Origin: Aggregatilineales bacterium
GTDB lineage: Bacteria; Chloroflexota; Anaerolineae; Aggregatilineales; Phototrophicaceae
DNA: 32,000 nt
Assembly: GCA_040219275.1 (NCBI GenBank)
Contig: JAVJSU010000072.1
Coordinates: forward strand, 56,099-88,098
Direction of reading: 5' to 3'
The notes under the pieces were generated by a model. The model had not been told where the DNA came from, searched no databases, and saw only the letters and a list, made by a program, of their open reading frames with translations. A program made the translations under genes and the position numbers. Shown here piece by piece: positions 8,352 to 30,944 of this stretch. How positions within the stretch are numbered: position 1 is the first letter of the stretch; each line of letters opens with the position of its first letter.

Positions 8352-8366
8352 ATTTGCACCTCCACT

Positions 8367-9080: not shown

Positions 9081-9094
9081 CTGACCTCACTCAT

Positions 9095-11871: not shown

Positions 11872-12016
11872 AATCTTGCGCCTCTATTTTGCTTTTTACA
11901 TGGGATATGAACTCAAAATACGAACTATTGTTCTGGTATTCTTCATTATATTACAAAAAACAAACACCAGTAAAGGTGTCTGTCGTTATAGTTTCGTTTG
12001 GTTTTTTGAGGGGGGA

Positions 12017-12935: not shown

Positions 12936-12938
12936 AGA

Positions 12939-14632: not shown

Positions 14633-14679
14633 ATAAGAGTCTAACTGGCTTATTTGGATGGAAATTGGGCAAAATCGTT

Positions 14680-14707
14680 CCTATATATATGGTTGTATAT
14701 ATATAGG
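14680..14707. promoter_or_regulatory. perfect 11-bp inverted repeat upstream of the parM-like gene
   Basis: CCTATATATAT (14680-14690) / ATATATATAGG (14697-14707) with a 6-bp spacer, in the divergent intergenic region between the parM-like and MerR-like genes. Confidence 0.6.
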
Positions 14708-14789
14708 GGGGTCTTTTTTGCTCCTTAGAGTTAAAATTGCCTTCTTTTTCGTAATTACACTACGGGATTAAAGCTATAATATAGAGTAC

Positions 14790-14808
14790 ACTTGTAGAAG
14801 TTACAAGT
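14790..14808. promoter_or_regulatory. candidate operator dyad upstream of the MerR-like gene
   Basis: ACTTGTA-gaagt-TACAAGT perfect 7-bp arms, just downstream of a TATAAT at 14775-14780 and 21 nt upstream of the GTG start at 14830. Confidence 0.55.
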
Positions 14809-14829
14809 CAAGCTTATAGGAGTTGGAAT

Positions 14830-15375
14830 GTGAAAACTTATACACCTGGAGAAATTGCAGTTGTAATTGGAGTTAGTGCAAGCTCCATTAGAAATTGGAC
14901 TGAGCAAGAAGAACTTCAGCCTTATCTATCTGATATGGCAACCCGCCGGAATGATTTTGAACACGCTAAACAACGTGAATATACGATAGAAGACCTCTAT
15001 GTTCTAAATACAATTGGCAAAGCGAAGACACGTCACAATAGTTGGCAAGATGTAGCTGACTTCCTTGAAGATGGCAACATTTATAAGGATTTACCCGCTT
15101 CTGCCGCTTTGGTTCTACAGGAAACAGCTGCAGAAGGTTTTGCTGACAAAATAATGCTTCATCAGCGAATTGAGTTTCTGGAAGTAACTATCAGGGATCA
15201 AGAGGCTGAGATCGAACAGTTGCGCCAGCGAGTTGAGGAAGTTCGGAATGAAGAACGAGATGTAGCAAAGACTGAACGTGCAGAACTTCAATCAACCATC
15301 AACGATTTGAATCGATTGATCGGCAAACTAGAAGCAAAAATTGAAATGCTCAAGGAAAGCACAAACGACGAATGA
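14830..15375 (+). CDS. MerR-like/KfrA-like DNA-binding protein with C-terminal coiled coil
   Basis: GTG start; YTPGEIAVVIGVSASSIRNWTEQEELQPYLS...REYTIEDLYVLNTI winged-helix start followed by a long heptad-rich Glu/Gln/Leu region. Confidence 0.75.
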   Translation: MKTYTPGEIAVVIGVSASSIRNWTEQEELQPYLSDMATRRNDFEHAKQREYTIEDLYVLNTIGKAKTRHNSWQDVADFLEDGNIYKDLPASAALVLQETAAEGFADKIMLHQRIEFLEVTIRDQEAEIEQLRQRVEEVRNEERDVAKTERAELQSTINDLNRLIGKLEAKIEMLKESTNDE

Positions 15376-15428
15376 TATTGTCTAGTGTTCCAAAACAACA
15401 ATGCAGATAAGTAGGGCAGTTAGAAATC

Positions 15429-15815
15429 ATGAGCAAGAAAAAGCAACAAGGACATTATTGTAGGGTCTGTGGACGTTACCGAGCCAACGAAAAATTTAGC
15501 GGAAAAGGTCATCGACAGCATATCTGCAAGGACTGTAATCGTAACCAGCAAGCACAAAAGCGTGAGAAGAAACACGCAACAAAGCAAGCTGCTGAAGTTG
15601 GGTTACCAGTGCCCAAGCGTTATCCGATGACACGTTACCAGGCAGCCAGCTATCTCGGTATCACACCATCTGCATTTGATTATCGGCGTAAAAAACTAGA
15701 GCTGGAGCCATCTGGAACCTACGAGGGGAAACAGGGTACAGGCTTTCTCTTCGATATGGAAACAATTATCGCTGTTTACCGATACAGCCAAACGGATGGT
15801 AGTAACTCGGAGTGA
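15429..15815 (+). CDS. small zinc-ribbon plus HTH-like protein
   Basis: CRVCGRYRANEKFSGKGHRQHICKDCNR zinc-binding module, then a basic linker and YPMTRYQAASYLGITPSAFDYRRKKLELEPSGTYEGKQGTGFLFDMETI. Confidence 0.68.
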   Translation: MSKKKQQGHYCRVCGRYRANEKFSGKGHRQHICKDCNRNQQAQKREKKHATKQAAEVGLPVPKRYPMTRYQAASYLGITPSAFDYRRKKLELEPSGTYEGKQGTGFLFDMETIIAVYRYSQTDGSNSE

Positions 15816-15844
15816 ATTATGGCAGTGCAAATGACAGAATAGGG

Positions 15845-16010
15845 AATTGTGTCATTGTGGCAAATGGCATTTCCACTGCCGCATTTTTAACGGGTTTTTA
15901 TAGGTCTAAAGAGTTCAAAAATTAGGTAATTTTACGATTATTTGTCATAAACCGTCAAAAACAGGTCGGAAATGTAGCATTTAATGTGGCAGTAAACCTA
16001 TTGCCATAAT
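15845..16010. repeat. copy 1 of a duplicated intergenic regulatory region
   Basis: Near-identical to 19791-19956. The first ~77 bp (AATTGTGTCATTGTGGCAAATGGCATTTCCACTGCCGCATTTTTAACGGGTTTTTATAGGTCTAAAGAGTTCAAAA) is identical; similarity extends through TTTAATGTGGCAGTAAAC.TGTTGCCATAAT-like sequence. A short shared AATTATGGCAGTG also precedes both copies. Confidence 0.95.
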
Positions 16011-16036
16011 TCACCAGATATACATACGAGGAAATA

Positions 16037-17056
16037 ATGGAGCAAAAACTATCTGTACAAATCCTAACGTATCTATGCAACCTCATCATGACATCGCCCT
16101 ATAGAACAATGCGTGAACTGACTATCTTCTTCAAACAATTCGATGTACCCGATGTGTATGGTAACCCGTCACGCACAAACTACACTGAACAGCAACTTAT
16201 TGAATTAAATAATCAGGGAAAGCTCATCTCTGTTATTGAACAAGCAGTTGATCCAAGAAATTTCTTTGAATCAGAAATTGACATTGAAGAGATCATTGCG
16301 GAAGCCAATCGGTTTCTTGCTCTTGATGATCTTTTACTCATAAAAGCAAGGAATGGCTACAAAGTAAAGCTTCTGGGAAATCGTCATCATTCTGGTCAAC
16401 CGATAAAGAACATCATTTTTGGCTCTACAGGACCAAAACCAGATATCGTTCTTCGTGATGCACTGACTAATCAAATCGAAATCACTCAAAATGCTGAACA
16501 CTGCCTAGTCTATGATCACCACATCAATGACGAAGCAGGGTTGTCATGGGATGAACTGGTCGAGTGGTGGATGAGTTTGAATCAGTTGAAAAGCAGAAGT
16601 GATATTATTGAAAGAGAACTCTATCAACGGTTGAGGAAATCAATCCCCGAAACATCACCACCCGCCCGCAACTTGTTTCATTCTTACTATAGCTTTAAGC
16701 AACAGGGGATTCAGCGGCTTCCTGCATTACTTCCAGAGGTATATCTTCACTTTGATCCTAAGACCATTATTGAACGAAATGGGAAAAAGGTTCTGAACCG
16801 ACAGCGAATGGATTTCCTTTTGTTATTGCCATACGATGTGCGTATCGTGATTGAGGTCGATGGCAAACATCACTATGCGGATGGGGATATCGCAAGCCCT
16901 GAAAGATATGGCGAGATGATGATGGAGGATCGAGAATTGAGATTGATGGGCTATGAAGTGTATCGCTTTGGTGCAGTGGAGCTAAACAAGTCTATTGCTG
17001 AATCTAATGTAAAGAGCTTTTTTCGGCGCATATTCAAAAAGTATGGTATTTTGTAG
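16037..17056 (+). CDS. PDDEXK-like (DUF559/Vsr-type) nuclease domain protein, possibly AbiJ-like
   Basis: C-terminal LNRQRMDFLLLLPYDVRIVIEVDGKHHYADGDIASPERYGEMMMEDRELRLMGYEVYRFG matches the D...ExDGxxH arrangement of Vsr/DUF559-like endonuclease folds; unrelated helical N-terminal region. Confidence 0.72.
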   Translation: MEQKLSVQILTYLCNLIMTSPYRTMRELTIFFKQFDVPDVYGNPSRTNYTEQQLIELNNQGKLISVIEQAVDPRNFFESEIDIEEIIAEANRFLALDDLLLIKARNGYKVKLLGNRHHSGQPIKNIIFGSTGPKPDIVLRDALTNQIEITQNAEHCLVYDHHINDEAGLSWDELVEWWMSLNQLKSRSDIIERELYQRLRKSIPETSPPARNLFHSYYSFKQQGIQRLPALLPEVYLHFDPKTIIERNGKKVLNRQRMDFLLLLPYDVRIVIEVDGKHHYADGDIASPERYGEMMMEDRELRLMGYEVYRFGAVELNKSIAESNVKSFFRRIFKKYGIL

Positions 17057-17127: not shown

Positions 17128-17379
17128 ATGCAAAGTGCGATGACACAAATATTTGACAACCCGGTAGACGGCTGGGTGACAATGAAAGAGGCTGGTCGAA
17201 TCATAGACCGTGATACCTCAACCATTCGTTACTGGGCAGAAAATGGCAAGATCGCTTGCTTTAATGTTGGCACCAGTAACATTCGCATTGTTAATGTAGA
17301 GCAAGTAAAAGAATACTCAGCTAAGCATTCTTATCGTCTTGATAGACCAAAGCGTAGTCAGAAGAAGAAAACAGAGTAG
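17128..17379 (+). CDS. small excisionase/MerR-type HTH protein
   Basis: GWVTMKEAGRIIDRDTSTIRYWAENGKIACFNVGTSNIRIVNVEQVKEY, typical Xis/MerR-like HTH with wing and Lys-rich tail. Confidence 0.75.
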   Translation: MQSAMTQIFDNPVDGWVTMKEAGRIIDRDTSTIRYWAENGKIACFNVGTSNIRIVNVEQVKEYSAKHSYRLDRPKRSQKKKTE

Positions 17380-18136: not shown

Positions 18137-19756
18137 ATGAAACTAACCCGCGAAGATGCTTATGCCTTTCGCCGTATTATGACGAAAATGGATATACCTG
18201 ACGGACTAACACTTAGTCCCGTTACACGATTGTTGATTGATACTCTTGATCCAGTCAACAAAAAAGAGGGTTGGCAAACGCTCTACGATATGGTGATGCG
18301 TGATCAGTCTATTGTTGAACAGGTCATGTTCATTGATCCTAAAGCAGAACTACCAGAAGACTTGAAAGTCTGTGATGAATTGTATGTGCCGCCGTTGCCT
18401 AAAGCTGCTCAGCTTGATGAAAAACTTATCAAGTCTGCGGAAGGGGTAGGGCGCTTTCATCGTGACTGCACCAATTGGCTCAAGCAAAAATCACCTATGA
18501 CTCCGCATATTTTTCTGGAGTCTGCGCCGTTGTGGGCAGTTGGCTTAGCGATTGCTCGCCGAGCTGTATTGCGTTTGCCATTCAGTGATATTCATCCCAA
18601 TTTGTACATTCTGTGGTCAGCACCAACCACGTATTATCACAAAAGTACTGGCTTGAAGGCGATGACCCAACTGGTACGTAGTGTCTTGCCTCATCTATTG
18701 CTCGCGGAAACAACCACGCCTGAGATGTTGATGGCGAAACTCGCTGGGCAGAAGCCAACAAACTATGATCAGCTTCTCCCTAGCGAAAAGAAGCTGGAGG
18801 ATATGGGCAGCCGTTTTGCTGGACAGCGCGGTATGAGTATTGATGAAGCCAGCAAGATTCTTATCCCAAAGAAGTATATGGAAGGGCACTCTGAAGCACT
18901 AATGCAATTATTCGATGGGGGAGATCGCATGGAACGCGAGCTTCGAGGTGATGGCAAGCTCATCATCTACAATCCATCGTTGTCATTGATTGGTGCAACC
19001 ACGCCAACCATGCTTTCCCGGTATATGTCCGATACAGAGTGGGAAAGTGGGTTGATGGCACGTTTTATTGCATTAACACCCGCTGAAAAAGATATGCCTT
19101 TTGTCGTAAGTGATCCCTCGCCTGAACTTGATCGAATGACTGAAGGATTGAAGTCACGCCTGCACCGCATTCATAACGCCTTTCCCCAACCACCTGAATG
19201 GGAAGCTCTCTATAACTCGCAGGAATCAGTACAGTTGCCAAGCATTGACGTGTTACTTGAGCCAGAAGTCATGGCACGTTTCAACACTTATTCAAAAGCC
19301 ATGCATGAGTTAACTGATCCGCGTAATGGTTTGGATGAGCGTTTACGTGGTAACTATGGACGCTTGCCAGTGCTAACAGCAAAATTATCTCTCATCCTTA
19401 CCTTGATGGACTGGGCGGAGGATGGTGCAAAAGATGCACCGCGTATCACTTTAGCACATTGGGCAAGAGCGCAGATTCTCTCTGAAGAATATCGGGCATC
19501 AGCACATCGTTTGCTAGCGGAACTTAACGTCAGCCAGGATGTGAAAAATGAGCAGAAAATTTTAGATTTCCTTGCACGCGCTCAAAAAGATAAGCCACCA
19601 ACCAAACGAGAAATTCATCGAGGCACTGGTATCAAAAATCGTAAGGAAGCATATGCTGCTGTCGATGCTTTGGTTGAGTCAGGCGTAGTTGAATCTGTTG
19701 AGCGTAAATCTTCGCGAGGTAGGGGAGCTACAGCTTTTGTCATTAGTGAAGAATAA
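18137..19756 (+). CDS. DUF3987-like replication-associated protein
   Basis: 539 aa. NLYILWSAPTTYYHKSTGLKAM sits at the Walker A position; the pattern LSLIGATTPTMLSRYMSDTEWESGLMARFIALTPAEKDMP resembles DUF3987/DnaB-like proteins. Adjacent to a CHC2 primase-like gene. Confidence 0.6.
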   Translation: MKLTREDAYAFRRIMTKMDIPDGLTLSPVTRLLIDTLDPVNKKEGWQTLYDMVMRDQSIVEQVMFIDPKAELPEDLKVCDELYVPPLPKAAQLDEKLIKSAEGVGRFHRDCTNWLKQKSPMTPHIFLESAPLWAVGLAIARRAVLRLPFSDIHPNLYILWSAPTTYYHKSTGLKAMTQLVRSVLPHLLLAETTTPEMLMAKLAGQKPTNYDQLLPSEKKLEDMGSRFAGQRGMSIDEASKILIPKKYMEGHSEALMQLFDGGDRMERELRGDGKLIIYNPSLSLIGATTPTMLSRYMSDTEWESGLMARFIALTPAEKDMPFVVSDPSPELDRMTEGLKSRLHRIHNAFPQPPEWEALYNSQESVQLPSIDVLLEPEVMARFNTYSKAMHELTDPRNGLDERLRGNYGRLPVLTAKLSLILTLMDWAEDGAKDAPRITLAHWARAQILSEEYRASAHRLLAELNVSQDVKNEQKILDFLARAQKDKPPTKREIHRGTGIKNRKEAYAAVDALVESGVVESVERKSSRGRGATAFVISEE

Positions 19757-19790
19757 CGTAATTATGGCAGTGGATAAGTCAGATATAGGT

Positions 19791-19956
19791 AATTGTGTCA
19801 TTGTGGCAAATGGCATTTCCACTGCCGCATTTTTAACGGGTTTTTATAGGTCTAAAGAGTTCAAAATTTAGATGATTTTTCGATTATTTGACATAAAACG
19901 TCAAAAATCGATTAAAAATGTGTCATTTAATGTGGCAGTAAACTTGTTGCCATAAT
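19791..19956. repeat. copy 2 of the duplicated intergenic regulatory region
   Basis: See 15845-16010. This copy lies immediately upstream of the primase/dpd operon. Confidence 0.95.
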
Positions 19957-19971
19957 TATCTGAGGTGTCAA

Positions 19972-20979
19972 ATGATAGATGTTGAACGTATCAAAAATCG
20001 TGTTGACTGCCGTGATTTGATTGAGCGTGATCTGGGCAGACCGAAGTATCGGAACAACACACATAGTAAGTACAAATGTCCGCTTCATAATGAAGAGAAG
20101 GGCTACTCACTGGTTGTTTATGCCGATCACTGGAATTGTTTTGGCGCTTGTGGTCATGGTGGCGATGCCATTTCGTGGCTTCAGGAATATCATAGTATGT
20201 CATTTCAGGAAGCATGTGAACGACTTACATCAGGTGATCTACCGATTATCGATCAAGTTAACCGTTCACGACAACCCAAGATCGAGCCTATATCTGAACC
20301 GCCAGATTCTGGTTGGCAAAAGGCAGCACGCAAGATTGCCCAACAAGCAATGGATACGTTGTGGGGTAAGGAAGGTAAACGTGCCTGGCGTTATCTGGAA
20401 GAAGAACGTGGCTTAACCGAAGATACTATCGTTGCGGCTGGTCTGGGATACATTCCGGGTGACTATCGTGAATGGAAAACAATAGAAGGATTGAATGTCC
20501 CGTGCGGAATTACGATTCCATGGTTCGCATCAGGAGCGATTTGGGGTATCAAAGTTCGTCGTGCTACGGGTGAGCAACGCTACCATCAGGTTGGTGGCGG
20601 AAATCTCAAAGGTGGACTCTATTTAGCGGATTCCATCGAACCCGGTTTGGCAATCCTAATCACAGAAGGGGAGTTCGACGCACTAATCGCAAAACAGACT
20701 GGTGCAGGGCTGATCGCCTCAACAGCTATCGGAAGTGCGGCGAATAAACGTATCAATTCACGCTGGTTTCCAAAGTTTATCACTGCACCGAGTATCTTCA
20801 TCCGGATGGATGATGATCATGCGGGGCAGGGGGCTTCAGAAAAAATTGCGGGTTTATCACAGGCGACACAATGTATACAGGTTCCGCAAGGTAAAGATGT
20901 GAATGATTTTTACATACTTGCAGGACACGATGCCGTACATAATTGGATCATTGAGCTTATCGGAGATAATGAGAAATGA
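19972..20979 (+). CDS. DnaG-like primase with CHC2 zinc finger and Toprim domain
   Basis: YKCPLHNEEKGYSLVVYADHWNCFGACGHGGDAISWLQ is a CHC2-type finger. Toprim motifs are ILITEGEFDALIAKQTG and FIRMDDDHAGQGASEKI. Confidence 0.85.
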   Translation: MIDVERIKNRVDCRDLIERDLGRPKYRNNTHSKYKCPLHNEEKGYSLVVYADHWNCFGACGHGGDAISWLQEYHSMSFQEACERLTSGDLPIIDQVNRSRQPKIEPISEPPDSGWQKAARKIAQQAMDTLWGKEGKRAWRYLEEERGLTEDTIVAAGLGYIPGDYREWKTIEGLNVPCGITIPWFASGAIWGIKVRRATGEQRYHQVGGGNLKGGLYLADSIEPGLAILITEGEFDALIAKQTGAGLIASTAIGSAANKRINSRWFPKFITAPSIFIRMDDDHAGQGASEKIAGLSQATQCIQVPQGKDVNDFYILAGHDAVHNWIIELIGDNEK

Positions 20980-21431
20980 TGAAAATCTATGACCATGAAT
21001 TAACAAATCGTCAAATTGAAATTTTGTCCTTTATCTATGATTACCAGACGGATTATGGTTTTGTTCCCAGCATCCGTGAAATTTGTGAAGCTACTGGCAT
21101 CCGCTCGACATCAGCAGTAAGCTACCAGATCAATCGTCTTGTGAGATCAGGATACATCAATAAGGTGGGTGAAGTATCACGTGGCATGATTCTAATGGCG
21201 CCTGCCTATGATGTGATAGGGAAACAAGCTCCTCATGAATGTGATCTCTCAGTATTGCGTTCTGAACTGTTTGCGCTTCGTTTAGAGAATCGGCGTATTC
21301 GGGAACAATATGAGACTCGTGTCAAAAATCTGGAACATGAGCGCAATCAGCTTTCACAGACACTGGCGATGCTGAAGTATCGGGTTATCAAGCAACTTGA
21401 GGGTGTTTTTGAGGAAGAGTTGGCATCATGA
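20976..21431 (+). CDS. LexA-type winged-helix DNA-binding protein lacking an S24 peptidase domain
   Basis: LTNRQIEILSFIYDYQTDYGFVPSIREICEATGIRSTSAVSYQINRLVRSGYI matches the LexA DNA-binding domain. The C-terminus is coiled coil instead of the serine/lysine protease domain. ATGA overlap with the primase stop. Confidence 0.8.
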   Translation: MMKIYDHELTNRQIEILSFIYDYQTDYGFVPSIREICEATGIRSTSAVSYQINRLVRSGYINKVGEVSRGMILMAPAYDVIGKQAPHECDLSVLRSELFALRLENRRIREQYETRVKNLEHERNQLSQTLAMLKYRVIKQLEGVFEEELAS

Positions 21432-21538: not shown

Positions 21539-23458
21539 ATGCTCCCAAGATTCACAGTTAGCGAAAAATCTCGCAGAGGCCGTTTAGGTTCATTTGAATT
21601 TCAAAATGGTATTAAAAGTATATCTACTCCATTTATGTTTCCTGTTGCATCTACTGTTACAGGAACAACAGCTAATGGTGGTGGCATTTGGCGTTACGTT
21701 CTACAAGCGTATCCTGAAACGTACGACGAAGATGCAAGCGAGCTAAAAAGCCAGTCTCTCATGCGTCGAGGGACTCCGATTCTCTCACAGGTGTTACAAT
21801 TCTTAGATTATGGTGTTAGTCCGTCCAAGGTACAGTATTGGCGGGATGAGTCCATTCGCAAAATGTATAATGATGCACACACCATGGATTACCGTGCGCC
21901 AATTTTTCTGGATTCTGGAGGATTCAAGCTTATGTGGCGCGAAGGACTGGATCTCGATGCCTATGGTATTGATCTCAGTAAGTCCGCTGAAGCTCGGAGT
22001 ATTTCACAGCTTCAGTACGATCTGGGTGCAGACATCATCGCCAGTTTGGATTATCCAATTCCACCTAATCTCGCACCTGCTGAGGCTCGTGAGAGGATGA
22101 AACGTAGCCGAATGAATGCCATCCGAGTAGCTCGTGACTTACGCGACAAGAGGTTTCCCGGCTGGCGTCCGTTCTTTTACATGCCTGTTCACGGGTTGTC
22201 ACCTGAATCCATTACCTATTATATTGAACAATTATTTGGGCGTATAAGATACTATGATCTCGAAGGTGAGCCATTGGGTATTGCTATCGGTTCATTGGTA
22301 CCGTTGCGATTTTCACGTACCAACTTGTATAAGATTATCGAAATTGTTAATGCGGCTGTAAACGCTATACCAGAGCGCTTAAGAGATCAAATTCCTGTTC
22401 ACGTTTTCGGCGTAACAGGTACAGTGCTTCCTTACCTTGCATACTGCGGTGTGGATACATTTGATTCCAGTACATATGTTAAGGAGGCAATTAATCTCAA
22501 GTATATGGACCCTGACACGCGCGCGGGTCATGCCGTGTTAGAGATGACAGAGGATAGCTTTCATTGCCAGTGCGACATTTGTCGGTACCTGAATCTGCGT
22601 GAGGTTCAGGTCGCATTAGCAACGGATAGTAAGGGTAAACCGTTGCCACCACACAATCATCATAAAAGCAAATACTATGCTGATATTGCGTTGCACAATT
22701 TGGAACAAGACATTCAAATTGTCAGGGAGACTAGGGATGCAATTAACCAGGATTGTATGAACGAGTACATCATTCAGATGACAGAGCGCTTTCCCCGAAT
22801 GCGATATGCGCTCGATGCTCTCTGCCAAATCGATGATAGTCTCAAAGGACAAGTATCACGGGTACTACAACCGATCGAAAAACCTCTCAAAAAGACAAGC
22901 CCGAAGATCTACCAAACGTTTACACACACGGCTGACGACTTCGATCTTGCGCGAATGAATGGTAACCTTAGTGCAATTCTCACACCACCGCGCATCGCAC
23001 TTTTATTGCCATGCTCAGCCGATAAACCGTATTCCACCTCCCGAACCCACAGTTATGTGGAGCGGTACTTAGAGGAGTATTTCCCAGAGCAAAGAAACCG
23101 CATTCATAAGGTATCTTTATCAGGCTTATATGGTCCAGTTCCCGAAGATTATGAGTCCTATGAACCAATACTCAATTACAACTATCGACTTACTCCTGAA
23201 AATCAAGCACAGATCAAGTTGGTGTCCAAACGGCTCTTAGATTACTTGGAAGCATACCGGACAGGCTACACACATTATGTTGCCTATGCTACCAGCAAGG
23301 CTTATCGTATTGTCTTTGAACGGGTAGCTGAGGACTTTAAAGAGCTTACTGTATTGCCATCAGCACCAAAGTCGCGTCGACTAACAGAATTCTTTAGGGC
23401 TACGAATATCCAAGAGCTTGTACAATTTATAGACATAGCTCTTAATACTGATCTTTAG
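21539..23458 (+). CDS. dpdA: DpdA-like 7-deazaguanine DNA transglycosylase (TGT superfamily) with ArcS-like C-terminal domain
   Basis: TGT-type APIFLDSGGFKLM, ADIIASLDYPIPPN, FMPVHGLSPESITYYIEQLF and zinc ligands CQCDIC...H. C-terminal LLPCSADKPYSTSRTHSY matches the ArcS signature. Neighbouring genes encode DpdJ/DpdK-like proteins, QueC and YhhQ. Confidence 0.85.
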   Translation: MLPRFTVSEKSRRGRLGSFEFQNGIKSISTPFMFPVASTVTGTTANGGGIWRYVLQAYPETYDEDASELKSQSLMRRGTPILSQVLQFLDYGVSPSKVQYWRDESIRKMYNDAHTMDYRAPIFLDSGGFKLMWREGLDLDAYGIDLSKSAEARSISQLQYDLGADIIASLDYPIPPNLAPAEARERMKRSRMNAIRVARDLRDKRFPGWRPFFYMPVHGLSPESITYYIEQLFGRIRYYDLEGEPLGIAIGSLVPLRFSRTNLYKIIEIVNAAVNAIPERLRDQIPVHVFGVTGTVLPYLAYCGVDTFDSSTYVKEAINLKYMDPDTRAGHAVLEMTEDSFHCQCDICRYLNLREVQVALATDSKGKPLPPHNHHKSKYYADIALHNLEQDIQIVRETRDAINQDCMNEYIIQMTERFPRMRYALDALCQIDDSLKGQVSRVLQPIEKPLKKTSPKIYQTFTHTADDFDLARMNGNLSAILTPPRIALLLPCSADKPYSTSRTHSYVERYLEEYFPEQRNRIHKVSLSGLYGPVPEDYESYEPILNYNYRLTPENQAQIKLVSKRLLDYLEAYRTGYTHYVAYATSKAYRIVFERVAEDFKELTVLPSAPKSRRLTEFFRATNIQELVQFIDIALNTDL

Positions 23459-23481: not shown

Positions 23482-26400
23482 ATGTGGGCCAATCTACATC
23501 ACATCCTTTCTCAGATGTTCCATGAACTCAATGACGGGCAACCCCTCGAATCTCCCCAAAAACTATGGCAGAGATATCAACATGAGATACGTGCAATTCT
23601 TGATAATCCAGATGTTGATGACGAAGCTGTTATGGCTGTTAAACGTCATCTAGTTGAGATTGGCCCTGATATTTGGATTCCACAATCTTATGAGGCGGTC
23701 AGGGTATTGCAACAGTTGAAGCAACGTTTTTCCGCCGATGCAGAAGACCCTAATCCCCTCGTCGCGCAGCTTCGAGTTGAGGCACTAATTAGACGGCGGC
23801 CTGTTCGTGATATCCTGAGATCGAGCCTTGAAGAAGGGAAAATATCCCGAATTCTGGCGGATATTGGTCAGAAACACAAATATTCTCGTTTTCAAGTTGA
23901 TGGTTGGCGTCGAATACTCGAAGCTATAGGTGTACTCAAACATGACAATGCCCCTGAAAGTGTGGTGGTGGTGGCCCCGACAGGTTCAGGTAAAACTGAG
24001 GTCTTTCTCTTACCGGTTATTTATCACATTGCGAGTAAGCTCAACTCCAATGATGTGCCACGTTACATTATGATCTATCCACGTGTAGAGTTGCTGAAAG
24101 ATCAAGTTTCACGCAATCTAAAGTATGCTTATCGGGCCGAACAGCAATTTACTGATGGTCAGCAGTCAACATTCAATGGGCATCGGCAGGCCAAACACCC
24201 CTTTGTCGTTGGTATTCAATTTGGTGGTGTGAGATCCACTTATCAAGGGACCTTCAAAGAGAGAAGCCTGTTCGATGAGCAGAAGTATTTTCTTTTAGTA
24301 CCAACCTGTCCCATTTGTGAAGATAACATGCGTGAAGGCAATGAACAATGTGGAAGGTTGAAAGCAGGGCGTGCTAATGGGAGAGTAATTCCTTTGGAGT
24401 GTGACAATCTGAGTTGCGGTGCTGTCTTCCACGTCACTATTGGGAAAAACGATCATGCTGAAGCCCGAATTAAGCCGCACATACTTGTTACAACCATGGA
24501 ATCACTAGATAGACTGTATCTCAATCCCAAATTAGAGAGTTACATTCGCAACATTCAGGGCATCCTTCTTGATGAAGTTCACCTGTTTCACTCCCTATAT
24601 GGTGCACATATCTATAACCTTATTCGCAGAATTGAAGCTTTTCAAGAACATGGACAACCTTTGTCAAAGATTGCAGCGTCGGCAACAGTCTCTAACCCTG
24701 GACGCTTTATATCACGACTATTTTATGGCGTAGATGAGGACTCGCGTGTTGAAGTTCTGGACGCTGAACACTCTCATTACGATTTGGAGGATGCAGGTCT
24801 CGAAACTGTAGTGTTTCTACAAACTACGGAAACAGAAAGCTTTTCGCGAACGCAATCTACTCTGCTCCAGACAATCATGGCTGTTGGACACAGTGTATTG
24901 GGTGCTGATGAGCGGGCAATTGTATTTACAGAGTCTATCGATCATGCTAATCGAACCTACAGGCAACTTCTTGATGAGGAAAACGAAAAACGTTTGTGGC
25001 AGTTCCGAATGGCAGTGAATGATATTAAGTACAACGATGCAACTTGTCCAGCGACAAGCCCATTGGAATGCGACCATATCTATGCTAAAGGCGAATGCTG
25101 GCGTGCAATCCGTGGTGGTGTGCAATGTCATACGAACCTCATTGAGCCGTTTATAATTAATCGACCACTCAATGTCGATGTCATCACTTCGCAAGATCGT
25201 GGCAACTATTGGGATCCGGATGTGATCGTCGCAACTCCCGTACTTGAGGTCGGTGTTGATGATGAACGATTCAAAGCAACCATTCACTATCGTCCGCCTC
25301 AGTCCGTTTTTTCGTTCCTACAGCGCAGAGGCCGCGCTGGTCGTAGTGCAGGTGACACTGCCTATAGCATACTTGTTTTGGGACGTACACCGTCAGATGA
25401 GTTTTATTTCCGTCGCCGCAATCGCCTGATGGATCCAGGTAACTTCGAGTTACCACTCAATCCACGCAATGTTATCATCCAGAGTATGCATGATCAACTC
25501 GAGATTGAACGTGAAACAATTGGAACATATGTCAATCAGATGGGTAATCTTTCGAAGGCGATATTCCGATGGATGATAGAGAAGTATCTACGATGCCAAA
25601 CTTTATCACGGGTATTTGGAGAGAAACTCACTGAACTGCAAAATTCTGTTTTGCGCCAAGACAGTGATCATCAAACCTTGCAACAGGATTTTACGCAGTG
25701 GATCCGTGATCAGCATGATCGTTTCAAACGTCATTTGGATCTTGATCTCTTGCTTGATGAATTGACTTCACGAGTGCCTGTTGATCAACGTGGCAATGTC
25801 ACAAGATTTAGCGAAATGATATATGCCTACCGAAACAAAGAAGGAGTAGATATCGAAGAGATTAAACAACTCGGCAAACAAATTGCTATGGCGCTAGAAA
25901 GCATAATTTTCGACACTGAAGAAGAACTCGAGCAAGAGAAATATAAGCTACTACAGAATCTCATAAGAAAAATTACAAAAGACCATCAATCCATTGAACA
26001 GCTTGATATTGAGGCTGACCAGCGTCTTATCTCAGCACTCTATGACTACTTCAATTTACTTAAAGCACGCATTGTTGATGAGCGCTATCCGGGCACACTA
26101 AATCGAGCCGAAGATATGGTGAAGATAGTTTTACAGTCTCTCTTCTATATTGGTAATGCGTGTTTGTCACGACATTCTCATTGCGAGTCATGTACTCGTT
26201 ATTTTGTGCCAGATGCATATTTTCAGGAAGTTAAGCCAATTATTGTTGAGACATGGACAAACCGTGGCAAGAATCTTCAGGCTGAAATTCACGTAGAAGA
26301 TACAACAAAACTAGCCAACATGCTGTTGCCTTATAAAACATTCTACAGGTATTTCAGCGATCAAGATGCAATGGCTGTTTTGCGTACTACAACCAGTGCA

Positions 26401-27648
26401 GACTGGGTTTCACACGTCCGAAATCAGACCATAGTTCGTCTTGAACCAGGTATTGTCGGCGTACAGCGTAAAGTTTCTGATGAAATTACCGGCATTGAAC
26501 CCAACAAGATACATGTTGTTCCAATCCGACCTGATAAAGAAGGGCAGGGTGTGGTTGGTTTATGCCTCAATTGTTATGCTTTGCACCGTGCAAGTTACAA
26601 CGGTACATGTAGTACATGCGGCAATACTGAGATTACGAAGGTTCGCTTACGCTCTGAAGCAATTGTTCGGAGACAGGCTCTTTTCAAAAATGCGCTTCAA
26701 ATCTCGGATACTTTCTGGTATTGCCATGATCTTACAGGACATGTTCAGATTGATGGTGCTAATGTCCGTTATATTCGACAATGGTTTGATGGAGAGCAGT
26801 TCAAGAGTGTTGGAGGAGATCCTCAAGAATTTACGGCACTATATTATCGTAATGGTGAGGTTCCCTATCCCATTGTCTACGATCTTGTTACGCATGGCAT
26901 TGCTTGGGATTTGAGCAATGTTATTAGCCATATTTTGGGTGATGAGCAACTTCGAGAGACGATTTCACATTATCCGGATAAGAACTTTGATGCTGAGTTA
27001 ATCTTGCATACCGCATCTCATATGCTTCACAAAGCAATTGCCTCAATCAGTGGTGTGAACGACATTACACTTGAGTATGCTATTCAACGCAGTGGTATTG
27101 ATGGACGCGAGCGTGCGATGGTGGTGGTGTGGGAGCGCTACGAAGGTGGTGTAGGTATTTCCGAGATTATTCGAGACACACTGCAAGAAGATCCAATCTT
27201 ATTCTATCGAGAGCTACTCGCATCAGCACTTTGCCCAGTCTTTTATGCTGAGGACACTCAGTGGCCGGGCACCGATGAAAGTCTAAGACGGATTCTTTCA
27301 GAAAGATGGGCACTCGATGGCGAAGATATTCTAATCGATGGGATTATCCGCGAAGTAAAAGCCGAACGTGGTGCAATAGTAGCGCGGCAAGCGGAAGCAT
27401 CTCAAGCATGTAGTGAAGATGATGGTTGCCCTGCCTGTGTCCATGTTACAGTTTGCACTGAGCATATTGAACAGCCCCATAAGGTCAGCCGTTTTGTCGC
27501 AGAAGCCATTATGGATTATTTCCGCCTAACTGTGGATAACACTCGACTCGAGGCGATGAATCGGTATCGTAGAGAGACTCACGGAAGTGAAGCATTCCAA
27601 CTAAGACATAACCTTGAAGAGGATGTGTACGACATTGTGCGCTTTTAG
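23482..27648 (+). CDS. dpdJ: DpdJ-like superfamily 2 helicase with C-terminal DUF1998-type cysteine cluster
   Basis: 1388 aa. Motif I APTGSGKTEV, motif II LDEVH, motif VI QRRGRAGRS, several cysteine pairs (CPTCPICEDN, CESCTRYF, CLNCYALHRASYNGTCSTCG) and terminal DDGCPACVHVTVC. Sits directly between dpdA-like and PLD genes. Confidence 0.78.
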   Translation: MWANLHHILSQMFHELNDGQPLESPQKLWQRYQHEIRAILDNPDVDDEAVMAVKRHLVEIGPDIWIPQSYEAVRVLQQLKQRFSADAEDPNPLVAQLRVEALIRRRPVRDILRSSLEEGKISRILADIGQKHKYSRFQVDGWRRILEAIGVLKHDNAPESVVVVAPTGSGKTEVFLLPVIYHIASKLNSNDVPRYIMIYPRVELLKDQVSRNLKYAYRAEQQFTDGQQSTFNGHRQAKHPFVVGIQFGGVRSTYQGTFKERSLFDEQKYFLLVPTCPICEDNMREGNEQCGRLKAGRANGRVIPLECDNLSCGAVFHVTIGKNDHAEARIKPHILVTTMESLDRLYLNPKLESYIRNIQGILLDEVHLFHSLYGAHIYNLIRRIEAFQEHGQPLSKIAASATVSNPGRFISRLFYGVDEDSRVEVLDAEHSHYDLEDAGLETVVFLQTTETESFSRTQSTLLQTIMAVGHSVLGADERAIVFTESIDHANRTYRQLLDEENEKRLWQFRMAVNDIKYNDATCPATSPLECDHIYAKGECWRAIRGGVQCHTNLIEPFIINRPLNVDVITSQDRGNYWDPDVIVATPVLEVGVDDERFKATIHYRPPQSVFSFLQRRGRAGRSAGDTAYSILVLGRTPSDEFYFRRRNRLMDPGNFELPLNPRNVIIQSMHDQLEIERETIGTYVNQMGNLSKAIFRWMIEKYLRCQTLSRVFGEKLTELQNSVLRQDSDHQTLQQDFTQWIRDQHDRFKRHLDLDLLLDELTSRVPVDQRGNVTRFSEMIYAYRNKEGVDIEEIKQLGKQIAMALESIIFDTEEELEQEKYKLLQNLIRKITKDHQSIEQLDIEADQRLISALYDYFNLLKARIVDERYPGTLNRAEDMVKIVLQSLFYIGNACLSRHSHCESCTRYFVPDAYFQEVKPIIVETWTNRGKNLQAEIHVEDTTKLANMLLPYKTFYRYFSDQDAMAVLRTTTSADWVSHVRNQTIVRLEPGIVGVQRKVSDEITGIEPNKIHVVPIRPDKEGQGVVGLCLNCYALHRASYNGTCSTCGNTEITKVRLRSEAIVRRQALFKNALQISDTFWYCHDLTGHVQIDGANVRYIRQWFDGEQFKSVGGDPQEFTALYYRNGEVPYPIVYDLVTHGIAWDLSNVISHILGDEQLRETISHYPDKNFDAELILHTASHMLHKAIASISGVNDITLEYAIQRSGIDGRERAMVVVWERYEGGVGISEIIRDTLQEDPILFYRELLASALCPVFYAEDTQWPGTDESLRRILSERWALDGEDILIDGIIREVKAERGAIVARQAEASQACSEDDGCPACVHVTVCTEHIEQPHKVSRFVAEAIMDYFRLTVDNTRLEAMNRYRRETHGSEAFQLRHNLEEDVYDIVRF

Positions 27649-28105
27649 AGCTTTGCCGCGGATAATTGCAGAAATGCTTCTGGCAGCACCCAAATCCTCA
27701 GAGATATGTATTGTCAGTCCATGGATTCGTGAAGTTTTGCTGAAGCCTCCGATTATCGTGGGCACAGAAGGTGTGCTAGCTCAACACAAAACACCACTCA
27801 GCGAATTCCTTCATTTGCTTGTGTCTCGTAGGCACGTGCATTTGCACATATTTGTTCGAGAGTTTGACCGCGACATACGCACTATTACTCATGAAGTAAG
27901 GTTAGTGTTCCCTAATTCTATTCATATTCACGAAGAGCCACACCTACATGCCAAAGTGATTGCTACATCAAATAGCATTCTACAGATGTCAGCCAATCTA
28001 ATACCCACTAGCCTCTATCGTAACATCGAAACCTGTGCTATATCGACAAATAGGTACGGCTCTGCACGAACTTACACACATAACGAGCTGAAATTGGTTT
28101 TCTGA
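27614..28105 (+). CDS. dpdK: DpdK-like phospholipase-D-family protein
   Basis: EICIVSPWIREVLL, HLHIFVREFDRDIR, EEPHLHAKVIATSNSILQMSANLI, a single HxK PLD-like motif; overlaps the helicase 3' end. An in-frame TTG at 27653 (MPRIIAEMLLAAPKSSEICIVSPW) is an alternative start. Confidence 0.72.
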   Translation: MKRMCTTLCAFRALPRIIAEMLLAAPKSSEICIVSPWIREVLLKPPIIVGTEGVLAQHKTPLSEFLHLLVSRRHVHLHIFVREFDRDIRTITHEVRLVFPNSIHIHEEPHLHAKVIATSNSILQMSANLIPTSLYRNIETCAISTNRYGSARTYTHNELKLVF

Positions 28106-28109: not shown

Positions 28110-28529
28110 ATGCCAAAGATTTACATCGCAGGTCCATTGTTTAATAGCCACGAGCGACGCTATCTTGAAGAAATAGCTGAAACGTTTGAGACATCTGGCT
28201 ATCCAACTTTTTTGCCGCACAGAGATGCTGGACTGGTTGATCGTTTGGATGAGACTACGCGCCGAACTATATTCCTTGCCGATCTAAAAGCATTAGACGA
28301 ATGCGATATATGTATTGCACTGCTCACTGGTGCAGACCACGACTCGGGTACTTCGGTGGAATTGGGATATATGTATGCGAAGGGTAAACCCTGTTTTGGC
28401 ATCACTGATGATATGAGGTGGATGAATAACATGATTTGGGGAGTATGCGGTTACGGACGGAATATTGCCTCCACCATTGGTGAGTGTATTAAACTCGTCA
28501 ATCAATTCGTTAATCAGGGACTTGTATAG
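28110..28529 (+). CDS. nucleoside 2-deoxyribosyltransferase family protein
   Basis: MPKIYIAGPLFNSHERRYLEEIAETFETSGYPTFLPHRD...CDICIALLTGADHDSGTSVELGYMYAKGKPCFGITDD, a textbook NDT fold signature. Confidence 0.88.
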   Translation: MPKIYIAGPLFNSHERRYLEEIAETFETSGYPTFLPHRDAGLVDRLDETTRRTIFLADLKALDECDICIALLTGADHDSGTSVELGYMYAKGKPCFGITDDMRWMNNMIWGVCGYGRNIASTIGECIKLVNQFVNQGLV

Positions 28530-29193
28530 GACTAAAGGGCATTGTAGAAGCGTCAGCATCAATTCCCTCTTGCCTTCTGAAAAAGCTCACCGTTGCATAG
28601 GTTAGTGGTGTTGCCATTGCTTCGTAAGCAGTCTTGAACAGCCACTGGGTGATAATGGCTGTTGCCAACTCATTGGTTGCGATCGTTCCACCAAATGCCA
28701 CGACGATGAATATCAGTGAATCCAGTCCCTGTCCGACAAAAGTCGATCCAATCGTTCTCGTCCATAACCACTTGCCCTTTGTTAGAGCCTTCATTCTCGT
28801 CAAGACATAGGCGTTCGTAAATTCGCCAATCAGATACGCGATGAAGGATGCCACCAGCAAACGAGGCGTGTATCCTAGAATTCGCTCATACGCCTCTTGT
28901 CCATCCCAGAAACCAGCAGGTGGAAGGAGTTGCCCGGCAATGAGACCGACTACGGCCAATAAGTTGCAAAAGAAGCCTAGCCAGATAACTCGTCGCGCAT
29001 TCTCGTATCCGTACACTTCAGTTAGAATATCGCCAACGATATAGCTAATGGGGAAAATTACTATTCCTGCTGGCATGATTAGGCCGAAAACATCTACTAG
29101 TTTTACGGCTGCGATGTTGGCAGTGATCAATGAGGTGATAAATACACCAACAATAGCTACAAACCAAATTGAATATCCGTTTCTTGTATCCAT
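28510..29193 (-). CDS. yhhQ: YhhQ/VUT-family queuosine precursor transporter
   Basis: TANIAAVKLVDVFGLIMPAGIVIFPISYIVGDILTEVYGYENARRVIWLGF and FVGQGLDSLIFIVVAFGG are diagnostic of the family. Confidence 0.93.
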   Translation of the reverse strand: MDTRNGYSIWFVAIVGVFITSLITANIAAVKLVDVFGLIMPAGIVIFPISYIVGDILTEVYGYENARRVIWLGFFCNLLAVVGLIAGQLLPPAGFWDGQEAYERILGYTPRLLVASFIAYLIGEFTNAYVLTRMKALTKGKWLWTRTIGSTFVGQGLDSLIFIVVAFGGTIATNELATAIITQWLFKTAYEAMATPLTYATVSFFRRQEGIDADASTMPFSPIQVPD

Positions 29194-29210: not shown

Positions 29211-29870
29211 TTATCGATAAGGTATCGGGTCACTTATGCCGAGGGTTTCAAATGCCTTTACCCGTTCAACACACGTTGGGCAAATTCCACATGCCACCTC
29301 TTCACCTGCATAGCATGACCACGTTTTGCTGTAATCTACACCGAGTTCAAGCCCGATACGCAGGATATCTGCCTTCGAGAAGTTGAGAAAAGGTGCCACA
29401 ATATTAATATGACTTGGTGACAACTTATATAGGGCGTTGACGTGATTGACAAATTCCGGAGTTGTATCCCAATATCCGTAGATGTCATGTTTCTGAGCAC
29501 CATAGTATACCTCGTTTACACCTAACGTTTCAGCCCAGGCAATTGCCAATGCGAGAAAAATCATGTTTCTATTTGGTACATAAGTTGTTGGTTGTTCTTC
29601 TGGCAGGACGTTTGTTGCATTAGGAATATCAATCTGTTCGTTGATCAACGATGACATCGACCACAAAGCAGATAGTGATGATATATCAACGACTTTATGT
29701 AGCAGATTGAATACTGAAACATGTTTAGTTGCAAAGCTAACTTCTTTCTTGTGTCGCTGTCCATATTGAAAAGTGATTGCTGCCGGGTTGCGTTTTTGAT
29801 TTAACAGATAATACAGTAGCGTTGTACTATCAAAACCGCCGCTGAAAATTACAATACAATCGATTTGCAA
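29211..29870 (-). CDS. queC: 7-cyano-7-deazaguanine (preQ0) synthase QueC
   Basis: VIFSGGFDSTTLLYYLL PP-loop, ITFQYGQRHKKE, TPEFVNHVNALYKLSP, TWSCYAGEEVACGICPTCVERVKAF zinc site. Confidence 0.93.
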   Translation of the reverse strand: MQIDCIVIFSGGFDSTTLLYYLLNQKRNPAAITFQYGQRHKKEVSFATKHVSVFNLLHKVVDISSLSALWSMSSLINEQIDIPNATNVLPEEQPTTYVPNRNMIFLALAIAWAETLGVNEVYYGAQKHDIYGYWDTTPEFVNHVNALYKLSPSHINIVAPFLNFSKADILRIGLELGVDYSKTWSCYAGEEVACGICPTCVERVKAFETLGISDPIPYR

Positions 29871-29891: not shown

Positions 29892-30944
29892 TTAGAGATT
29901 TATCAGTTTCTCTATGATTTCTTGCGGATTATATACGCTTACAGGTGCACGGGTCGAGCCATCTAGGATGCCGATATAATCCTGGGTTGTCTTGACATCA
30001 ACATGTCCCAGATTTTGTCGAATGACCTCGGTTGGGATGCCGGCTAGAAATAGATTCCGTGCGTAGCTCCGACGCAGATCATGCGGTGTGACGTTGGTTG
30101 GAACACCGTTAATCGCGATGGGATAGCGTTTCAACATGCGCTGTACACTGCGGGTCGTCATCTTTTTGTAAGTCGCCACCTGTTTTAGCATATCACCGCG
30201 ACCATCGGACATTTTTGTGAACACAAAACCTGACTCAAGTCCAGCCAGCCAGATTTCTGTGATCTGTCGTGCCCAGAGCATATCGCCGAAAGGCACCATT
30301 CTTGCTTTTGACCCTTTGCCTGACTTTACCCGTACAGCAGGAACACTACCATAAGTCTGATAAAGATCATCGACTTGGAGTTTGACGATTTCACCCTCGC
30401 GTAAGCCGGTTGCCAGCATCAGCGCAATAATTGCCACATCACGCCGCCCACGCAGTGTCGAGACATCGGGTTGCATCATCAGCGCCGCGCCCTGTGCCGG
30501 AGTAAGACGAATGTGTTTGCTGTCTTCTTCATCCTGAACAGTCTGCGTCGTTACTTGTGAGCGTTCAGGGTCAATCGCCCGTATTAACCGCAACTCAAGT
30601 TCATCAGCTTTGGCTTTGATGGTCGCAAAATCCTCGTTGAGAAATTGCTGTTCCAGATAGGCAACTAAAGCCACCCGATGGTCCAGACTTTCAACCAACA
30701 GCTTGTAACTGCGGCGGATGCTGGATAGATGGGCACGCACACTCGATGGCGCGAGCGTGGCCAGCAGATGGTCGCGGTAAGTGCTCAAATCTGGCAGATA
30801 CATTGCATGTCCTGTTTCGGCCAGCCAGTTATTATATCGTGCTACATGCGACACGATATTTTTGTTATCAGAATGTGGTGGTAAACCACCACCTAAAGCT
30901 CGTTGAGTGAGGTCATTTTTAACCATGAGTAGAGTATACCACAA
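29892..30944 (-). CDS. tyrosine recombinase/integrase (XerC/D-like)
   Basis: SAM-like N-terminal region plus catalytic motifs TGLREGEIVKLQ (R), VTPHDLRRSYARNLF (HxxR), LGHVDVKTTQDYIG (Y). Confidence 0.92.
   Translation of the reverse strand: MWYTLLMVKNDLTQRALGGGLPPHSDNKNIVSHVARYNNWLAETGHAMYLPDLSTYRDHLLATLAPSSVRAHLSSIRRSYKLLVESLDHRVALVAYLEQQFLNEDFATIKAKADELELRLIRAIDPERSQVTTQTVQDEEDSKHIRLTPAQGAALMMQPDVSTLRGRRDVAIIALMLATGLREGEIVKLQVDDLYQTYGSVPAVRVKSGKGSKARMVPFGDMLWARQITEIWLAGLESGFVFTKMSDGRGDMLKQVATYKKMTTRSVQRMLKRYPIAINGVPTNVTPHDLRRSYARNLFLAGIPTEVIRQNLGHVDVKTTQDYIGILDGSTRAPVSVYNPQEIIEKLINL

Follow-up and report, generated by a model that had tools for sequence, protein, structure and literature searches.

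A conserved gene joining an arcTGT-type transglycosylase domain to an ArcS core: a candidate single-protein writer of 7-deazaguanine DNA modification on a Chloroflexota genomic island

Can one protein both insert a 7-deazaguanine base into DNA and process the side chain of that base? In the known 7-deazaguanine DNA systems the two jobs are split, with insertion carried out by DpdA (together with DpdB in bacteria) and the side chain handled by DpdC, ArcS2, Gat-QueC or QueF. The question is raised by a gene at 21539..23458 on the plus strand of a 32,000-nucleotide stretch from an Aggregatilineales bacterium (assembly GCA_040219275.1, contig JAVJSU010000072.1, positions 56,099 to 88,098), which was analysed as a whole and is referred to here as the window. 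A first-pass annotation of this DNA had read the gene product as a DpdA-like transglycosylase fused to a domain with the signature of the archaeosine synthase ArcS. We favour, with modest confidence, the reading that the gene encodes a single-polypeptide DNA writer, which would insert 7-cyano-7-deazaguanine (preQ0), convert its nitrile, probably to 2'-deoxyarchaeosine (dG+), and supply the modification function of a compact Dpd-like restriction-modification system. It is plausible that one protein could carry out the insertion as well as the processing of the side chain.

The gene starts with an ATG and its open reading frame (ORF) translates into a protein of 639 amino acids, a proposed bifunctional 7-deazaguanine inserter and nitrile modifier that we call TGT-DUF5591. 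It is 100% identical to P0001, a protein annotated as 'tRNA-guanine transglycosylase' in an Aggregatilineales (Chloroflexota) metagenome-assembled genome (MAG). Residues 106-419 (21854..22795, plus strand) match the Pfam tRNA-guanine transglycosylase (TGT) catalytic domain, a TIM barrel with a zinc site (PF01702; E 7e-21, 75.1 bits against a cutoff of 26.3), and residues 485-601 (22991..23341, plus strand) match DUF5591, the Rossmann-like C1 catalytic core of ArcS (PF17884; E 7.8e-15, 55.5 bits against a gathering cutoff of 26). Within the DUF5591 match lies the ArcS signature PCSADKPYSTSRTH (residues 491-504, 23009..23050, plus strand), which fits PC-x3-KPY-x2-S-x2-H and is the sole match to this pattern when the window is translated in six frames (chance expectation 2e-5). 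The reading frame and the exact signature are thus both as the first-pass annotation had described them, and the DUF5591 match answers the hidden Markov model (HMM) search that it had proposed for an ArcS-like domain. In the TGT half, the key residues are D125 in LDSGGF (21911-21913), D171 in LDYP and D309 in GVDTFDSS (22463-22465), with a zinc site formed by C343, C345, C348 and H386 (CxCxxC at 22565-22582).

To which branch of the TGT superfamily does the N-terminal half belong? Its best solved relative, found with a profile of 50 family members, is the archaeal transglycosylase arcTGT of P. horikoshii (PDB 1iq8; E 2e-25), and the alignment places LDSGGF (D125) on D95 and GVDTFDSS (D309) on D249 of that enzyme. 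An AlphaFold2 (AF2) model of the full protein (pLDDT 90.6, pTM 0.88) gave the same answer in Foldseek, with arcTGT (1iq8/1j2b) at the top and bacterial and eukaryotic TGTs after it; residues 103-416 are the region of best sequence and fold match to 1iq8. The match to the archaeal TgtA model TIGR00432 (86.2 bits) lies below its cutoff of 350. Affinity to DpdA was searched for at several levels. The NCBIfam DpdA model (NF041059) gave 15.2 bits against a cutoff of 200, none of the PADLOC DpdA models matched the fused protein and only the generic 'TGT' model did, with 13 bits, and a tblastn search of residues 1-439 against 50,697 phage genomes, in which the phage DpdA1-4 families are included, gave no match at E<=1e-3. 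Membership of the DpdA family was rejected on these low scores and on the lack of any phage relative of the N-terminal half. The family label 'DpdA-like' therefore has to be given up in favour of arcTGT as the nearest relative, while the broader assignment, a catalytically competent-looking transglycosylase of the TGT superfamily joined to an ArcS core, holds. The TGT fold and three invariant active-site aspartates (D125, D171 and D309), which are also the hallmarks of DpdA, are present; in DpdA itself the roles of D95, D130 and D256 as acid/base, base-binding residue and nucleophile are established (PMC10164549). Further, the segment G251-S-L-V-P255 aligns to the arcTGT pocket segment G-G-V197-V198-P (G-x-(L/V)-V-P), and a review gives this pocket position a role in preQ0 specificity (PMC5699537); for the fused protein we infer, and do no more than infer, a similar part for this segment. 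Judged by its sequence and predicted fold, the N-terminal half is an arcTGT-type barrel that is complete and has all of its catalytic residues.

As for the C-terminal half, it is a true ArcS core. The family profile matched AF0587, a DUF5591 plus PUA protein (PDB 2q07), with an E value of 3e-8. The structural comparison with the ArcS core that the first-pass annotation had called for gave the same result, as a separate AF2 model of residues 470-639 (22946-23455; pLDDT 87) returned 2q07 as the sole significant fold match in the PDB (E 1.3e-6, query TM-score (TMq) 0.59). Against a viral structure library, the same model matched a 170-amino-acid protein (E 2e-7) and the DUF5591 protein R9TEI9 of Vibrio phage nt-1 (E 3.5e-5, prob 1.0). 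A tblastn search for phage relatives of this half recovered only ORF75 of Methanobacterium virus PhiF1, a stand-alone DUF5591 protein of 170 amino acids, and the likeness to nt-1 ArcS2 was recovered by fold alone and not by tblastn. DUF5591 is scarce, with 251 of 1.84 billion cluster representatives matching at E<=1e-3, and these representatives fall into three architectures: fused (the domain at about 450-640 of 610-700 amino acids), ArcS-type and stand-alone. HMM, profile-versus-PDB and fold evidence thus agree on a TGT-superfamily enzyme joined to an ArcS-core domain, as had been claimed.

How unusual is this juxtaposition? Canonical ArcS consists of a TGT-like N-terminal domain, a DUF5591-containing C1 domain, then C2 and PUA (PMC10516641, PMC5699537). 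A TGT domain followed by DUF5591 is therefore the native ArcS domain order and not unusual in itself. In keeping with this order, the ArcS HMM (NF040592) aligns over the domain junction of the fused protein (residues 295-603); the score of 92.6 bits stays below the cutoff of 440, and the score on NF053620 is 42 bits against a cutoff of 600. For comparison we used ten ArcS-type proteins from the representative search, which score 286-665 bits on NF040592, four of them above the cutoff. The pattern PC-x3-KPY-x2-S-x2-H is exact in all ten, which also keep the blocks PCSxxKPYSxSxxH and (S/T)xLGxVPxELE. The same ten proteins are without DSGG, LDYP and HVFG, and often the CxCxxC...HN zinc site is missing as well, whereas the fused family carries DSGG, LDYP, HVFG and the zinc site; DSGG alone is found in none of the ten ArcS proteins and in all of the 120 best family homologues. 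Since canonical ArcS keeps the motif and lacks DSGG and LDYP, the intact TGT half is a family-specific feature, and the degenerate TGT-like N-terminal domain that marks ArcS is absent here. At its other end, the fused protein stops about 38 amino acids past the DUF5591 match, where canonical ArcS runs about 170 amino acids further, and a Pfam scan of the fused protein gave no PUA match, so that the C2 and PUA domains that ArcS has, and that arcTGT has in its C1-C2-PUA arrangement, are absent. As far as these alignments can tell, the oddity of the fused protein is a TGT half with catalytic residues that ArcS has lost, together with missing C2 and PUA domains, and not the juxtaposition of TGT and DUF5591. 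It is best described as a complete arcTGT-type catalytic domain followed by an ArcS C1 core, without C2 or PUA.

The fusion is not a one-off event, as its presentation in the first-pass annotation would suggest, but a TGT catalytic domain with an ArcS core that is conserved as a multi-phylum family. The two-domain architecture is common to at least 448 homologues, all of them annotated solely as tRNA-guanine transglycosylase. A scan of one genome per species gave 116 loci, 80 of which were kept; they span Chloroflexota, Cyanobacteria, many Poribacteria, one Symbiobacteriaceae genome and haloarchaea. The gene is also found on haloarchaeal megaplasmids. The haloarchaeal copies are 31-36% identical to the window protein over the full length. 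Of the 120 best homologues, 119 carry the ArcS signature exactly. In a 50-sequence alignment (A1), D125, D171, D306, D309, the zinc ligands and S528-G-L-Y-G532, P535 and E539 are invariant, as is the full ArcS motif (P491, C492, K496, P497, Y498, S501 and H504). In all intact copies found at 82 loci the active-site residues are kept, even where identity falls to about 31%, and the exceptions are isolated: one zinc-site cysteine is replaced in two haloarchaeal loci (C to R in L073, C to H in L081), H504 is changed to Q in L071 and L077, and P491 to A in L071. That both catalytic constellations are conserved speaks for activity in both halves. The domain is also not a general companion of DNA-type transglycosylases, an outcome that would have counted against the first-pass interpretation: DUF5591 is missing from ordinary DpdA proteins, and equally from the short TGT paralogues of haloarchaea (about 414 amino acids). 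At two loci (L065 and L075), the fused gene is broken into two ORFs and may be frameshifted or a pseudogene.

The genes around TGT-DUF5591 in the window fit a 7-deazaguanine DNA system, in line with the annotation that prompted this work. The fused gene heads a tight plus-strand operon. Only 23 nucleotides past its stop begins a gene for a DpdJ-like (YprA-family) DEAD/DEAH helicase of 1388 amino acids (23482..27648), which matches PADLOC DpdJ with an E value of 5.5e-72 and 241 bits, contains the Pfam DEAD and Helicase_C domains and carries a Walker A GSGKT at 168, DEVH at 364 and CxxC pairs. It is followed by a gene for a small DpdK-like nuclease of the phospholipase D (PLD) family (27614..28105, plus strand; 163 amino acids as listed; PADLOC DpdK E 7.5e-9) with the HxK motif H112-A-K. 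The listed TTG start of this gene overlaps the helicase gene by 35 nucleotides and an in-frame ATG at 27674 sits past the helicase stop; this ATG is probably the true start, giving about 143 amino acids. The last gene of the operon (28110..28529, plus strand) encodes a nucleoside 2-deoxyribosyltransferase (NDT)-family protein of 139 amino acids (PF05014 E 3.5e-25) with intact YIAGPLF and DSGTSVELGY motifs. Three minus-strand genes converge on this operon: a YhhQ/Vut_1 transporter for queuosine precursors (preQ0/preQ1; 28510..29193; PF02592 E 4e-55, TIGR00697 136 bits against a cutoff of 51), the preQ0 synthase QueC (29211..29870; PF06508 E 8e-63, also recognised by PADLOC as QueC) and a tyrosine integrase (29892..30944; PF00589 E 2e-23). 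Homologues of DpdJ and DpdK, not equivalogs, accompany the transglycosylase, the only TGT found in the window, and the window holds these J-like and K-like genes but not the full complement of dpdA-C plus dpdD-K.

The integrase marks the right edge of a low-GC island. Between about 11.2 and 31 kb the GC content is 0.43-0.45, against 0.51-0.55 in the flanks, with a rise from 0.44 to 0.51 past about 31 kb. The low-GC stretch and the integrase mark the cassette as cargo of an integrative, satellite-like mobile island; a search of the window for att direct repeats, for tRNA genes and for Rfam elements, a preQ1 riboswitch among them, found none. Upstream of the fused gene lies a plus-strand replication and regulation module, with an HTH_17 protein (17128-17379), a DUF3987 protein (18137-19756), a CHC2-Toprim primase (19972-20979) and a LexA-type winged helix-turn-helix protein (20976-21431). 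In the neighbourhood comparison this module is not kept with the system elsewhere, and the LexA-type regulator, considered as a system component, was rejected on the same ground, since the fused gene does not keep it as a neighbour in other genomes. A direct repeat of about 197 nucleotides occurs at 15815-16011 and 19760-19957 (90% identical over 173 nucleotides, copies 3946 nucleotides apart); its copies fill the intergenic space upstream of the ORF starts at 16037 (AbiJ_NTD3-like, 339 amino acids) and 19972 (primase), and may have arisen by duplication of a promoter or other regulatory region belonging to the mobile element. More genes of defence-like or plasmid-like character lie in the left part of the island (11242-17056), namely LuxR/GerE-type regulators (10459-11871, minus strand), an AbiU2 HEPN protein (12174-12935, minus strand), an actin-like ALP_N protein (13364-14632, minus strand) and the AbiJ_NTD3-like gene (16037-17056, plus strand). 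Outside the island, in the higher-GC flank, five consecutive large ORFs (747, 570, 881, 237 and 425 amino acids; 758-10372, minus strand) have no Pfam match at E<=0.01.

Is this association kept in other genomes? The triad of fused, DpdJ-like and DpdK-like genes recurs in Anaerolineaceae, in another Aggregatilineales genome, in Chloroflexia, in Thermogemmatispora and in several cyanobacteria, and the Anaerolineaceae relative carries the same NDT, YhhQ and QueC genes. A member of the DpdJ-like BLAST cluster adjoins the fused gene in nine bacterial loci, the window included, and lies within 10 kb in five more. The DpdK-like gene comes after the helicase in L003, L004, L010 and L066 and is present in the haloarchaeal loci L076, L077 and L081. 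An NDT-family gene follows the system in L003 (16324-16731), and four Poribacteria loci have one 3-5 kb downstream of the fused gene; in L038 it is at 15226-15693. The NDT-family enzyme might act on (deoxy)nucleosides or nucleotides to salvage or swap their 7-deazaguanine bases. Ten cyanobacterial loci have a different arrangement, in which a DUF262 protein (PADLOC NsnA 197 bits, PD-T4-2_A 125 bits) and a HEPN protein lie directly downstream, and one locus has both the DpdJ/K and the DUF262 plus HEPN modules. The DUF262 protein (ParB fold) may stand in for DpdB or act as an effector of its own. On one Anaerolineae contig, NurA and HerA lie downstream of the fused gene. Taken together, the informative loci of Chloroflexota and cyanobacteria number 19, and in all of them a nuclease or helicase module of defence type lies immediately downstream (DpdJ/K, DUF262 plus HEPN, or NurA plus HerA).

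Side observations from these neighbourhoods may be recorded here. The cyanobacterial DUF262/GmrSD_N and HEPN (MAE_28990/RiboL-PSP) genes lie on the same strand as the fused gene (L001 11905-13621; L008, L009, L013, L015-L018, L020 and L021), and the trio occurs in differing genomic contexts, as though moving together. In some Poribacteria loci an N6/N4 DNA methyltransferase gene lies directly upstream of the fused gene. A radical-SAM gene resembling lysine aminomutase, 2.5 kb downstream in some Poribacteria, was considered as a partner and rejected, because it shows conserved synteny with aminotransferase and peptidyl-prolyl isomerase genes among closely related genomes. In haloarchaea, the fused gene lies by an operon of DUF6884, short TGT and GHKL-ATPase genes, with DpdJ-like and PLD genes near. 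Haloarchaeal loci (L070, L072-L074, L076, L077, L079, L081-L084) hold up to three TGT paralogues, the short one of 352-418 amino acids, with one or two fused copies next to DpdJ-like and PLD genes. A Haladaptatus plasmid (NZ_CP119784.1; L086, 138-18655), where DpdJ-like and PLD genes are near as well, has two fused copies and one short TGT. A split module and a fused insert-and-modify module side by side may mean two different modifications.

How might such a writer work? The catalytic residues suggest that the arcTGT-type barrel would exchange guanine for free preQ0 by double displacement, with D309 as nucleophile, D125 as general acid/base, D171 in base recognition and the zinc site in a structural role. 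By likeness to the ArcS core, the DUF5591 domain would then attack the nitrile of the inserted preQ0, probably via C492 with K496, Y498, S501 and H504, to give an amidine. The likeliest product would be dG+, following the precedent of nt-1 ArcS2. E. coli makes preQ0. DpdA2 and ArcS2 of phage nt-1 give rise to dG+ in E. coli DNA (PMC10516641); dG+ has so far been reported solely in phage DNA. Nitrile conversion would also bar the TGT domain from reversing the exchange. Modification of inserted preQ0 blocks the reverse arcTGT reaction (PMC11298593), and as arcTGT cannot reverse the exchange on a modified base, the base would be locked in place. ArcS of M. jannaschii uses NH4+, Gln or Asn (PMC11298593). 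Gene order suggests that the modified base would mark self DNA against the DpdJ-like helicase and the DpdK-like PLD nuclease, which would restrict unmodified incoming DNA, that the QueC and YhhQ of the island would supply preQ0, and that the NDT-family enzyme may salvage the base. Helicase, nuclease and writer together would form a compact three-gene Dpd-like restriction-modification module.

Several observations weigh against this reading. We infer DNA over RNA as the substrate solely from the neighbouring genes and the missing C2 and PUA domains, and the TGT half is nearest to a tRNA enzyme, arcTGT, and not to DpdA. S. Montevideo DpdA requires the DpdB ATPase for its action on DNA (PMC10164549), and no DpdB-like protein (DpdB, DndB, ParB-like) was found among the window proteins scanned. 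The ArcS of T. kodakarensis, a lysine transferase, works only when complexed with the radical-SAM enzyme RaSEA (PMC11298593), and the window contains no radical-SAM gene that could encode this partner; the product is therefore uncertain, with a lysine-type adduct or dADG (2'-deoxy-7-amido-7-deazaguanosine) also possible. The DpdJ-like and DpdK-like proteins score well under the NCBIfam equivalog cutoffs (219.7 bits against 800 for DpdJ, 29.7 bits against 100 for DpdK). Finally, in Poribacteria (L024-L064, about half of the species-level hits), the fused gene is solitary among housekeeping genes, without DpdJ/K, with neighbours that include argS, nadD, rsfS and argJ. A rival reading is an RNA enzyme, a one-polypeptide bacterial archaeosine pathway combining arcTGT and ArcS activities on tRNA or other RNA, with defence neighbours that are coincidental or with RNA modified in defence. 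The solitary Poribacteria copies speak for it, as does the closeness of the two halves to archaeal TgtA/arcTGT and to the tRNA enzyme ArcS, and the lack of a PUA domain is not prohibitive, as ArcS acts on substrates down to the preQ0 nucleoside (PMC11298593). Nevertheless, the fused protein is without C2 and PUA, the domains that serve arcTGT and ArcS for tRNA, and it occurs in operons with DpdJ/DpdK-like genes across two domains of life, elsewhere with DUF262 plus HEPN or NurA plus HerA, and here on a mobile, low-GC island that brings QueC and YhhQ of its own. Even the Poribacteria copies, which occupy at least six unrelated contexts and are present twice in two MAGs, suggest a mobile gene over a core tRNA gene. 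We therefore regard an RNA enzyme as unlikely.

If the substrate is DNA, the chemistry of the second step could still differ. The domain might hydrate the nitrile as DpdC does, to dADG or another non-amidine product, which would make the protein a functional DpdA-DpdC fusion. DpdC belongs to the DUF6884 family, and in Foldseek the C-terminal model resembles a phage DUF6884 protein (prob 0.99, TMq 0.54, E 0.016). An hhalign comparison of DUF5591 and DUF6884 (e.g. L073 12040-12513) keeps motifs in register over 136 collinear columns (PCSxxK/SCSxSK, LSGLYG/LSAEHG and YDFRL/YDRRM, respectively). In addition, bacterial Dpd systems use dADG and 2'-deoxy-preQ0 (dPreQ0) (PMC10164549), and phage nt-1, which encodes ArcS2, also has some dADG. 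However, the hhalign probability is 2.8% and cross-matches in a reciprocal hmmsearch of 1451 locus ORFs were not significant, so that homology by sequence was not secured and was kept as a lead. The domain also has the full ArcS motif, including the KPY, S and H that are missing from DpdC-like proteins, the haloarchaeal loci retain a DUF6884 gene in addition to the fused one, suggesting that the chemistry differs, and nt-1 ArcS2 gives dG+ in a two-plasmid test (PMC10516641). DpdC-like hydration thus appears quite unlikely to us. Alternatively, only one half may be catalytic, with DUF5591 as a structural or substrate-binding relic and plain dPreQ0 as the product, or with the TGT half as a binding module and another TGT inserting. 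The degenerate TGT-like domain of canonical ArcS, the additional short TGT beside the fused gene in haloarchaeal loci and the inactivity of T. kodakarensis ArcS without RaSEA offer precedents, but the catalytic residues of both halves are kept in the intact copies of the family with isolated substitutions only, unlike a relic, and the fused protein is the sole TGT in the bacterial loci. We consider a single active half very unlikely.

We therefore return to the preferred reading, a single-polypeptide DNA writer. A fuller version of it, which we regard as doubtful, would hold that a widespread cellular family inserts preQ0 into chromosomal DNA with no DpdB-type ATPase and turns it in place into an amidine (dG+, or a new amine adduct such as one with lysine, as no RaSEA is present), that the three genes form a minimal Dpd-like restriction-modification system, and that DUF5591 and DpdC are homologous Cys-based enzymes, both activating the nitrile once preQ0 is part of a nucleic acid. 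The ArcS core and DpdC may be remote homologues, both nitrile-modifying; the statistics for this are weak. If one chain does both jobs, no simpler writer of a hypermodified guanine would be known, and the family might represent an evolutionary intermediate between arcTGT and ArcS. It would further suggest that dG+ or a related base is present in genomes of Chloroflexota, Cyanobacteria, Poribacteria and haloarchaea, and that a compact Dpd-like defence module has been overlooked by current detectors, as no PADLOC or NCBIfam DpdA model recognises the fused protein.

How does this system compare with those already known? In the literature we found no description of a bacterial TGT-DUF5591 fusion or of the three-gene module, in a search that left most subscription journals uncovered, so that an earlier description is possible. 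The closest precedent is DpdA2 and ArcS2 of Vibrio phage nt-1 (Hutinet/Cui 2019, 2023; PMC6884629, PMC10516641), whose two activities are those that we propose for the fused protein and in which the DUF5591 core likewise comes without PUA and matches our C-terminal half in fold (R9TEI9). There, a separate DpdA2 works with a stand-alone ArcS2 whose motif is degenerate, in a phage that evades restriction; here, one polypeptide carries the exact motif, its TGT half is arcTGT-like with no detectable similarity to phage DpdA, and the gene lies on a bacterial chromosome or mobile island together with restriction genes. Canonical ArcS (NF040592, with its partner RaSEA) has the same domain order and signature but acts on tRNA and has C2 and PUA, domains that are absent from the fused protein, just as no RaSEA was found in the window. 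With arcTGT/TgtA (1iq8), the fused protein shares the catalytic aspartate pair, the zinc site and the G-x-(L/V)-V-P pocket; arcTGT has the C1-C2-PUA tRNA-binding domains and is without the ArcS motif. The haloarchaeal fused-gene loci, with YprA/DpdJ-like helicases, PLD, DUF6884, TGT and ATPase genes, match the description of BRIGADE (bioRxiv 10.1101/2025.09.15.676423); the text and supplements of that preprint make no mention of TGT, ArcS or DUF5591. BRIGADE was reported from haloarchaea only and with far more components, whereas the window system is bacterial and minimal. The Dpd system of S. Montevideo (DpdA/B/C plus DpdD-K) has homologues here in the DpdJ-like and DpdK-like genes, with QueC and YhhQ near, and would share the proposed logic of a self-mark combined with helicase/PLD restriction. 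It comprises eleven genes against three core genes here, where no DpdA-family TGT, DpdB, DpdC or DpdD-I was found, and its writer belongs to the DpdA family, where ours would be a fusion of a TGT with an ArcS core. All the parts are thus of known kinds, and what is new is their combination: an intact arcTGT-type barrel and an ArcS core in one chain, without DpdB or DpdC and with a minimal DpdJ/K arm.

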